This document shows positions 59,953-60,745 of a stretch of 64,000 bases of DNA, piece by piece. The notes under the pieces are model-generated. The model saw only the letters and a program-made list of their open reading frames with translations. It did no database searches and was not told the origin of the DNA. The translations under genes and the position numbers were made by a program. This stretch comes from Eledone cirrhosa (Eukaryota), in the NCBI GenBank assembly GCA_964016885.1, contig OZ024740.1, positions 288,548,001 to 288,612,000 on the forward strand, in the 5' to 3' direction. Numbering within the stretch: the stretch's first letter is position 1; each line of letters begins with the position of its first letter.

Positions 59953-60606
59953 TACTGGGAGATTGAATGAACCTTTCATCCTGTTATGCGTAAATAAAAT
60001 AGATATCAGTTAAGTATTAGGAGGGGTTTGTTTGACTAAGTTGTTCTTAATATCTGTAGTTTTGTGTCTTTATTAGAAATCATTGTTGTTGTTGTTCAGG
60101 GTGGGTTTAGTTAGTTTAAGGCATATGTTGTATGTAAATGATCTCAGTTCAAATTATCCTAGTAATCAACTTTGAGTTATATCACCGCTGGTGTGACCAG
60201 GGGAGAAGGGTAATAGAATAATTTCCGAGTCAGTTATCACCTCCAAATTTCTATAAAAGTACTTCTGGTAAAAGAAATCACCATTATCATTGTTGTTGTT
60301 ATTCATCTTAAAGGATGTAATGGCTAAAAGGACAGTGTATAAGATACTTAACTTCTTGGCCCTACATTTCATAGTCTACTACAGGTATTTTGTTCTGTAC
60401 TTTAGGCAAAACACTTAATGTAATGTTTGCTGCTCGAAATCGAATCCCGATAATCTTTGTTTTTTTTTTTTGTTTCTTTATGACAGGGTTATTACTCTTT
60501 CTATACATTAAAAAAAATATTTCATATATATATATAATATTATTATTATATACTTTTTAAATTTCACATATATTGTTTTGTCTTTTGTTTCTGTGTGCTC
60601 TTACAG

Positions 60607-60636
60607 AGTGGTGGGTTGGTTAATGACACAACTAAG
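60607..60636 (+). CDS. Ank2: Ankyrin microexon SGGLVNDTTK (30 nt, phase 0/0), probably alternatively spliced
   Basis: Acceptor TTGTTTTGTCTTTTGTTTCTGTGTGCTCTTACAG and donor AAG|GTTGGT; frame-preserving; LVNDTTK resembles vertebrate ANK2 MVNRTTE at the same junction. Confidence 0.8.
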
Positions 60637-60745
60637 GTTGGTATTTGAGCCCTAACAAATATTTAGAGCCTCTCTTCATTGTTCCTCTCAATGTTGTTCT
60701 CCAGAATGTTCCTGTTGTTATTGTTGTTGTACTCTTGACGGCATC

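Follow-up and report, generated by a model that had tools for sequence, protein, structure and literature searches.

An optional 30-nt exon in an octopus ankyrin gene lies at the site of the chordate AnkB/AnkG microexon and may share its origin

Background

Human ankyrin-B carries a short insert, MMVNRTTE, between two of its ankyrin repeats. The ankyrin gene of the octopus Eledone cirrhosa contains a 30-nt open segment, SGGLVNDTTK, that an earlier note on this DNA placed at the same junction. The note offered two readings, a bilaterian-ancestral microexon or convergence, and pointed to a UGC beside the 3' splice site as a sign of control by SRRM3/4 (eMIC). The locus therefore raises three linked questions: whether the segment is an exon, whether it and the chordate microexon had one origin, and whether it is switched in neurons by the eMIC. 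Our explanation as a whole (a real optional exon, one ancestral origin with the chordate AnkB/AnkG microexon, and neuronal eMIC switching) is one that we hold with slightly more confidence than doubt.

A 20-species study confidently names only two bilaterian-ancestral neural exons, in APBB1/2/3 and MADD, and requires an insect copy (bioRxiv 10.64898/2026.09.05.749416). A comparison of fly and mouse describes an eMIC programme that is almost wholly rewired (PMC8797185). The cross-phylum ankyrin match was not found in the main texts of the literature searched, and preprint supplements may list it. The main text of PMC8797185 does not mention ankyrin, and that of bioRxiv 10.64898/2026.09.05.749416 has no match to "ank". 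No description of the insert was found in the main texts of PMC13046794 and PMC5135030 or in PMC12626424, where the search included the supplement.

An optional exon of an octopus ankyrin gene

The window is the whole stretch of DNA that was analysed, 64,000 nt of contig OZ024740.1. The microexon and its surroundings, in window coordinates unless otherwise given, are as follows.

37659..37760, + strand: exon for ankyrin repeat 1 (mapping of the O. bimaculoides protein)
53780..53878, + strand: exon for ankyrin repeat 4 (mapping; its 3' end matches a loose contig end before 54480)
54481..54666, + strand: upstream constitutive exon, repeats 5-6, ending NADSSTK in phase 0, donor GTAAGT (mapping; spliced contigs cover it exactly)
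60487..60603, + strand: AG-free zone, about 118 nt long, containing a U-rich tract (about 60573-60595) (sequence)
60596..60598, + strand: TGC at -11 to -9, candidate eMIC-response motif (sequence)
60604..60606, + strand: 3' splice site CAG (sequence)
60607..60636, + strand: 30-nt phase-0 cassette microexon; its peptide, SGGLVNDTTK, lies in the finger loop that joins ankyrin repeats 6 and 7 (sequence; O. bimaculoides proteins)
60637..60642, + strand: 5' splice site GTTGGT, preceded by AAG and deviating from the consensus at +3 and +4 (sequence)
L007:3915-4013 (from G000:C1:288615915), 3.9 kb past the window end: next exon, SGFTPLH..., 99 nt (mapping)

The coordinates, TGC, CAG, ten open codons, GT donor and NADSSTK frame given by the earlier note are all correct to the base. 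The segment at 60607-60636 is a short, frame-preserving cassette exon (30 nt, phase 0, no stop codon in the SGGLVNDTTK frame, both isoforms in O. bimaculoides). The window covers 9.3 kb of this intron, and under the filter used position 60607 is the sole candidate there at which a pyrimidine-rich YAG precedes a short, open exon that is in frame and has a G|GT end. The strict definition of a microexon is 3-27 nt, and the octopus exon is slightly above it. Its first six bases are identical to those of the next exon and its end resembles a repeat exon. One may speculate that it is a collapsed copy of a repeat exon; its first residue varies between taxa.

Proteins record both forms. Among the best 120 of 5879 matches, 48 protein clusters are from O. 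bimaculoides, of which 22 contain SGGLVNDTTK and 26 skip it, and the peptide is included in 46 of the 93 octopod proteins compared; the protein counts come from these 120 and from the best 120 of 5763 matches, a second list that favours insert carriers, and they are not inclusion levels. Included and skipped isoforms also occur in Potamilus and Biomphalaria, and all Arion isoforms among the matches seen skip the exon. A whole-body transcriptome of Arion exists (PMC4795696), and the Arion records here are not tied to it. The exon is already in public annotations: RefSeq XP_014773636.1 (O. bimaculoides) and many UniRef isoforms of that species include it. The expectation that gene predictors would miss it was thus wrong for this species, where the peptide stands verbatim in annotated proteins. 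The Lottia and B. floridae gene models may lack the microexon.

The earlier note also proposed a search for reads across the two inclusion junctions, in brain and in non-neural RNA. RNA-type contigs from three of four runs (X15, X11 and X7) join the upstream exon directly to the downstream exon, skipping the microexon, and the X15 contig has zero differences from the window sequence. The contig of the fourth run, X1, stops six letters past the upstream exon, where the included (AGTGGT-GGG) and skipped (AGTGGT-TTT) forms diverge, which is a weak hint. No microexon-including contig occurs among those on the upstream exon in the four runs, whose tissues are unlabelled and whose contigs drop minor forms. 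We infer inclusion in E. cirrhosa itself because the splice sites are intact and the peptide is identical in O. bimaculoides.

The X15 contig, an exact match that shows the skip junction only, is what a pseudo-exon (a chance or dead match, unspliced in E. cirrhosa) would give; with an identical peptide in O. bimaculoides isoforms, conservation in three phyla, intact splice sites and contigs that lose minor forms, this reading is very hard to credit. The segment at 60607-60636 is a real alternative exon of the octopus ankyrin gene.

The host gene

The host gene is a canonical ankyrin, in which the ANK repeats precede exons for ZU5, UPA and the death domain. When O. bimaculoides ankyrin P0048 is mapped onto the window and L007-L018, its exons fall in order, mostly at 85-100%, and exon 54481-54666 has 98% identity to O. 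bimaculoides proteins. Exons for ankyrin repeats 2-3 (P0048 residues 64-129) were not found in window positions 37760-53780. An assembly gap of 200 N at 50397-50596 falls inside the interval between repeats 1 and 4, and these exons are probably lost in it. A short alternative first exon, MLKKWISW, lies at window position 14748 and matches one O. bimaculoides isoform.

Two other features of the window were noted. A minisatellite at 42902-49738 has 227 copies of a 30-bp unit with 97% matches and accounts for the strong GC skew of the window. The intronic stretch at about 63300-64000 is GC-richer and by eye resembles a LINE reverse transcriptase fragment.

The gene has a second microexon of 18 nt, KLKWKS, just before ZU5 and outside the window (L014:861-878, G000:C1:288682861-288682878). 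KLKWKS is also found in the nemertean and in gastropods; insects have KLHWKN or KLSWKS and nematodes KLQHKT, so that this microexon is apparently protostome-wide, judging from the residues. Vertebrates have an optional 11-residue block at this place. There is no TGC in the 150 nt upstream of the 18-nt exon.

Distribution of the insert among animals

Among lophotrochozoans the insert is GGLVNDTTK in the gastropods Biomphalaria and Elysia, with Aplysia carrying it too, and VGGLVNDTTK in the bivalve. The nemertean Tubulanus has SGSLVNDTTK in 15 of 15 isoforms compared, identical to octopus at 9 of 10 residues. Both ankyrin paralogs of the earthworm Glossoscolex carry it, as TGSLANDTTK and NGGLVNDTTK.

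Among chordates, MMVNRTTE is present in AnkB of human, mouse, frog and zebrafish, in AnkG of frog, in two AnkG of zebrafish, and in Ciona. The sequence given for the human AnkB insert in the earlier note is correct, and its position at the repeat 6/7 junction is indeed that of the octopus exon. Mouse AnkG has MVVNRATE, Botryllus RIVNRITE, and amphioxus WAVNAATE in all six proteins compared. Inserts are 8, 9 or 10 residues long, that is 24, 27 or 30 nt, with the nucleotide lengths outside octopus read from proteins. Among the proteins compared, no inter-repeat junction other than 6/7 has a recurring insert; the comparison left out 31 proteins lacking the region and one further protein lacking the downstream motif. 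Judged from these proteins, the microexon extends across lophotrochozoans and across chordates, AnkG and the tunicate and amphioxus proteins among them.

The insert is in none of the 120 ecdysozoan proteins compared, a set grouped by exclusion with many isoforms per species. A different microexon, at ZU5, is carried by 33 of the 117 ecdysozoan proteins that reach this domain, so the set is able to reveal microexons. In the S2 Table of PMC5135030 (first 400 residues, all 41 rows) the insert is present in 13 rows and absent in 28: human AnkG (one isoform), five AnkR, B. floridae, Lottia, five echinoderms, ten ecdysozoans, four cnidarians and Trichoplax. None of the six insect rows has it at the protein level, and none of the five echinoderm rows, which are one isoform each. 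The alignment made by the authors of that table had trimmed the insert away. A 27-nt exon of fly Ank2 (DmeEX0000200) was considered as a counterpart and rejected, as no fly protein seen has an insert at repeat 6/7. A search among shorter proteins gave ten matches, none of them lophotrochozoan by name, and a search of the ESM Atlas gave generic ankyrin repeats only.

One origin or two

The alternative of ancestry or convergence posed by the earlier note is the right question, and the evidence leans to ancestry because the exon is found across lophotrochozoans and across chordates, including AnkG, tunicates and amphioxus. A single origin is supported by the same junction out of 22, by frame-preserving lengths of 8-10 codons, by occurrence in all three subphyla of chordates and in three phyla of lophotrochozoans, and by a similarity on a par with that of orthologous fingers; the intron phase in chordates is read from proteins, not from DNA. 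We regard one ancestral microexon, lost in ecdysozoans, as likely. The exon would have been gained once, on the bilaterian stem, and later lost from Ecdysozoa and from AnkR.

Two gains at one site are rather unlikely. In its specific form, which we hold to be unlikely, this explanation has a type I convergence at one intron, with an exon of 27-30 nt gained on the lophotrochozoan stem and one of 24 nt on the chordate stem, each insert then being shaped towards the ankyrin finger consensus in the sole loop that tolerates an insert. The residues of the inserts bear on it from both sides. The earlier note made too much of the shared VNxTT(K/E), as V, N, T and K at the shared positions are the commonest residues of ankyrin fingers (32, 35, 57 and 45%), which is what convergence on a finger consensus would give. 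Alanine at -8, present in 82% of fingers, is missing from all three insert types, and this counts against two gains.

The likeness between inserts was set against a background of finger pairs, the repeat fingers of two molluscs compared with those of a bird. Over the last seven residues, a window picked after the data had been seen, the octopus and vertebrate inserts have a BLOSUM62 score of 21; of the finger pairs, 10 of 924 non-equivalent ones and 18 of 44 equivalent ones score at least as high. Over eight residues the score of the inserts is reached by 79 of 924 and 34 of 44 pairs, respectively. A smaller version of the comparison gave 26 of 400 and 15 of 20. The similarity thus exceeds that of most non-equivalent fingers, against expectation for two gains. 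The likeness of the octopus and amphioxus inserts is unremarkable (127/924), and the octopus insert is as close to the vertebrate inserts as the amphioxus insert is. Within clades the insert is nearly frozen, Ciona being identical to human and octopus matching nemertean and earthworm at 9 of 10 residues. Peptides so nearly frozen within each clade, yet with only 4 of 8 residues common to octopus and chordates and with different lengths, favour separate gains.

The distribution also has two sides. The absence from ecdysozoans (0/120), in a set that reveals ZU5 microexons, and from all five echinoderm rows is as two gains would have it, and if echinoderms are truly without the insert, two gains are more parsimonious than a single gain with two losses. 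These rows are one isoform each, which weakens the point. Precedent favours convergence as well: three of four same-position eMIC exons of fly and mouse were judged convergent in PMC8797185, and same-site convergence is described as common there and in bioRxiv 10.64898/2026.09.05.749416. The loop at repeat 6/7 comes after an irregular 29-residue repeat 5-6 and is a plausible hotspot. Against this, two independent gains would have had to strike the same single junction of 22, both within the brief interval that separates the bilaterian split from the origins of chordates and lophotrochozoans.

The ancestral reading has consequences beyond this gene. The microexon likely belongs to a very small set that these animals received from their common ancestor. 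We give an even chance to the fuller claim that the bilaterian ancestor passed it on as a third neural microexon and one of the original eMIC targets, which chordates and lophotrochozoans have retained for > 550 million years and ecdysozoans have lost. An exon common to chordates and three lophotrochozoan phyla and lost in ecdysozoans is a case that fly-centred designs cannot see, and if it is ancestral, comparisons centred on the fly make the ancestral neural splicing programme look smaller than it was. A neuron-specific loop separating ankyrin's two N-terminal target sites would then be older than the vertebrate axon initial segment. One intron compared across many genomes is a cheap and direct test of ancestry against convergence.

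The acceptor and its predicted regulation

The microexon acceptor shows eMIC-type features of low specificity: TGC at -11, an AG-free zone of 118 nt, the fourth longest among 32 mapped acceptors of the ankyrin gene, and a pyrimidine tract. Its donor, GTTGGT, deviates from GTAAGT. The earlier note took the TGC as a marker of eMIC dependence, which overstates its value, since the background is 12-23% in the gene and the window. In this gene, a TGC starting at -20 to -6 is present in 3 of 25 acceptors that are constitutive and in 3 of 5 that are alternative, the microexon not counted; these are small numbers, from acceptors mapped automatically from BLAST hits after removal of one mis-mapped row from the constitutive set. 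In the window, 409 of 1811 YAG sites have TGC within -20 to -4. TGC alone is weak evidence for eMIC control.

The other alternative exons of the gene with TGC at -20 to -6 are the following.

L011:4360
L012:5186
L012:7610

No CTAAY branch point was found within 200 nt upstream of the microexon. TAAT occurs at -72, -156 and -186; CUAAY is an enrichment feature and not a consensus derived from octopus. UGC is not strictly required for an eMIC response (bioRxiv 10.1101/2024.09.17.613571). The median length of fly eMIC exons is 31 nt.

In mouse, a 24-nt exon of Ank2 (MmuEX0004901) is eMIC-dependent and a 24-nt exon of Ank3 (MmuEX0004909) is neural and not classed as eMIC-dependent, each being the most 5' listed event of its gene (PMC8797185 Table S2). 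From length and place in this table, which is without sequence, we infer that both are the repeat 6/7 insert.

The genome probably encodes an eMIC regulator, judging from an eMIC-like last exon at G000:C22:28146458(-), with an acceptor, ARKRPVPY, an RS-rich tail and a stop. This exon lies 1.24 Mb downstream of a cwf21 exon with an intron, on the same contig (C22) and strand. It was located with a motif taken to be that of the eMIC. It matches only positions 56-67, the end, of PF15230, with an E value of 0.013, a match that falls short of the cut-off. A PF15230 profile search of the genome gave no match, and its controls were also silent. There are two cwf21/Srrm2-like genes: one at L019:1324-2394 (G000:C26) is intronless with 356 codons, and one at L020 and L047 (G000:C22) is intron-bearing. 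The second half of the cwf21 domain of the C22 gene was not found in the following 140 kb.

We consider neural and eMIC control of the octopus microexon likely on these grounds. A short exon with a weak donor would by default be left out. Use of the Srrm234 last exon that carries the eMIC would favour early assembly of the spliceosome at the U-rich/UGC acceptor, and the microexon would be included. The switch to inclusion would likely be made in neurons by the eMIC form of Srrm234.

The exon could instead be homologous and alternative while being non-neural or eMIC-independent in octopus, for example muscle-biased or under other RNA-binding proteins, with an incidental TGC. The TGC background, the lack of CTAAY within 200 nt and the neural, not eMIC-dependent, class of the mouse Ank3 counterpart fit this, as does the report that only about 3% of the neural exons of outgroup species are conserved in another species (bioRxiv 10.64898/2026.09.05.749416). 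We judge it improbable, as TGC at -11, a long AG-free zone and a weak donor fit the eMIC architecture described in PMC8797185, the presumed mouse Ank2 counterpart is eMIC-dependent, and an eMIC-like exon is present in the genome. The microexon suits a cross-phylum minigene test of the eMIC code in molluscs.

Predicted effect on the protein

Repeats 1-10 of the O. bimaculoides isoform that includes the exon were modelled with AlphaFold2; the model has a mean pLDDT of 88 and aligns to AnkB 4RLV over 329 residues (Z 37.7, rmsd 2.5). The AnkB crystal 4RLV holds the 8-residue insert, from its numbering. The only model segment below 50 pLDDT is HNADSSTKS, the tail of the upstream exon, and the block with the microexon end averages 86. 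A model of cod AnkG P0125 has a mean pLDDT of 49 and is uninformative. The microexon's C-terminal half is predicted to occupy the finger position, and the upstream tail HNADSSTK would loop out.

Finger loops line the ankyrin binding groove, in which site 1 is repeats 2-6 and site 2 is repeats 7-10 (PMC4358367). On the model, the microexon makes the loop where target sites 1 and 2 meet ten residues longer. Ankyrin is a major neuronal scaffold, and the insert lies between two of its mapped sites of target binding. We predict that the longer loop tunes membrane-partner binding or the spacing of the two sites. No function of the inserted loop is described in the literature searched, even in mammals.

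Comparison with known microexons

Regulation of the ankyrin insert is shown in mouse only, through the presumed match to MmuEX0004901 and MmuEX0004909. The octopus exon resembles SRRM3/4 (eMIC)-dependent microexons as a short in-frame cassette with UGC near the 3' splice site, an AG-free zone and a pyrimidine tract. Unlike them, it has no CTAAY in the 200 nt upstream, and its eMIC control is putative. Its weak donor is like the fly and not the mammalian eMIC pattern (PMC8797185). Ank3 E35a is also a conserved ankyrin microexon under Srrm4 influence; it differs in sitting before the death domain and is, as described, vertebrate only (PMC13046794).

With the 24-nt microexons of vertebrate ANK2 and ANK3 the octopus exon shares the repeat 6/7 junction, frame preservation, both isoforms and the VNxTT(K/E) end. 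It differs in its 30 nt and in being identical at 4 of 8 residues. At the finger tip TK is kept in octopus, whereas SK has become TE in chordates.

Against the scheme of bioRxiv 10.64898/2026.09.05.749416, the lengths of 24, 27 and 30 nt are multiples of 3 within the allowed difference of <= 6 nt, and the combination of vertebrates, amphioxus or sea urchin, and centipede or octopus is found for presence only. No insect copy was found at the protein level, and the ankyrin microexon is excluded from the ancestral set of that preprint because an insect exon is required. The ankyrin microexon differs from those of APBB1/2/3 (6 nt) and MADD (9 nt) in its absence from insects, its greater length and its greater divergence. 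Like them, it is present in vertebrates, amphioxus and octopus, and it is a candidate for the same age class.
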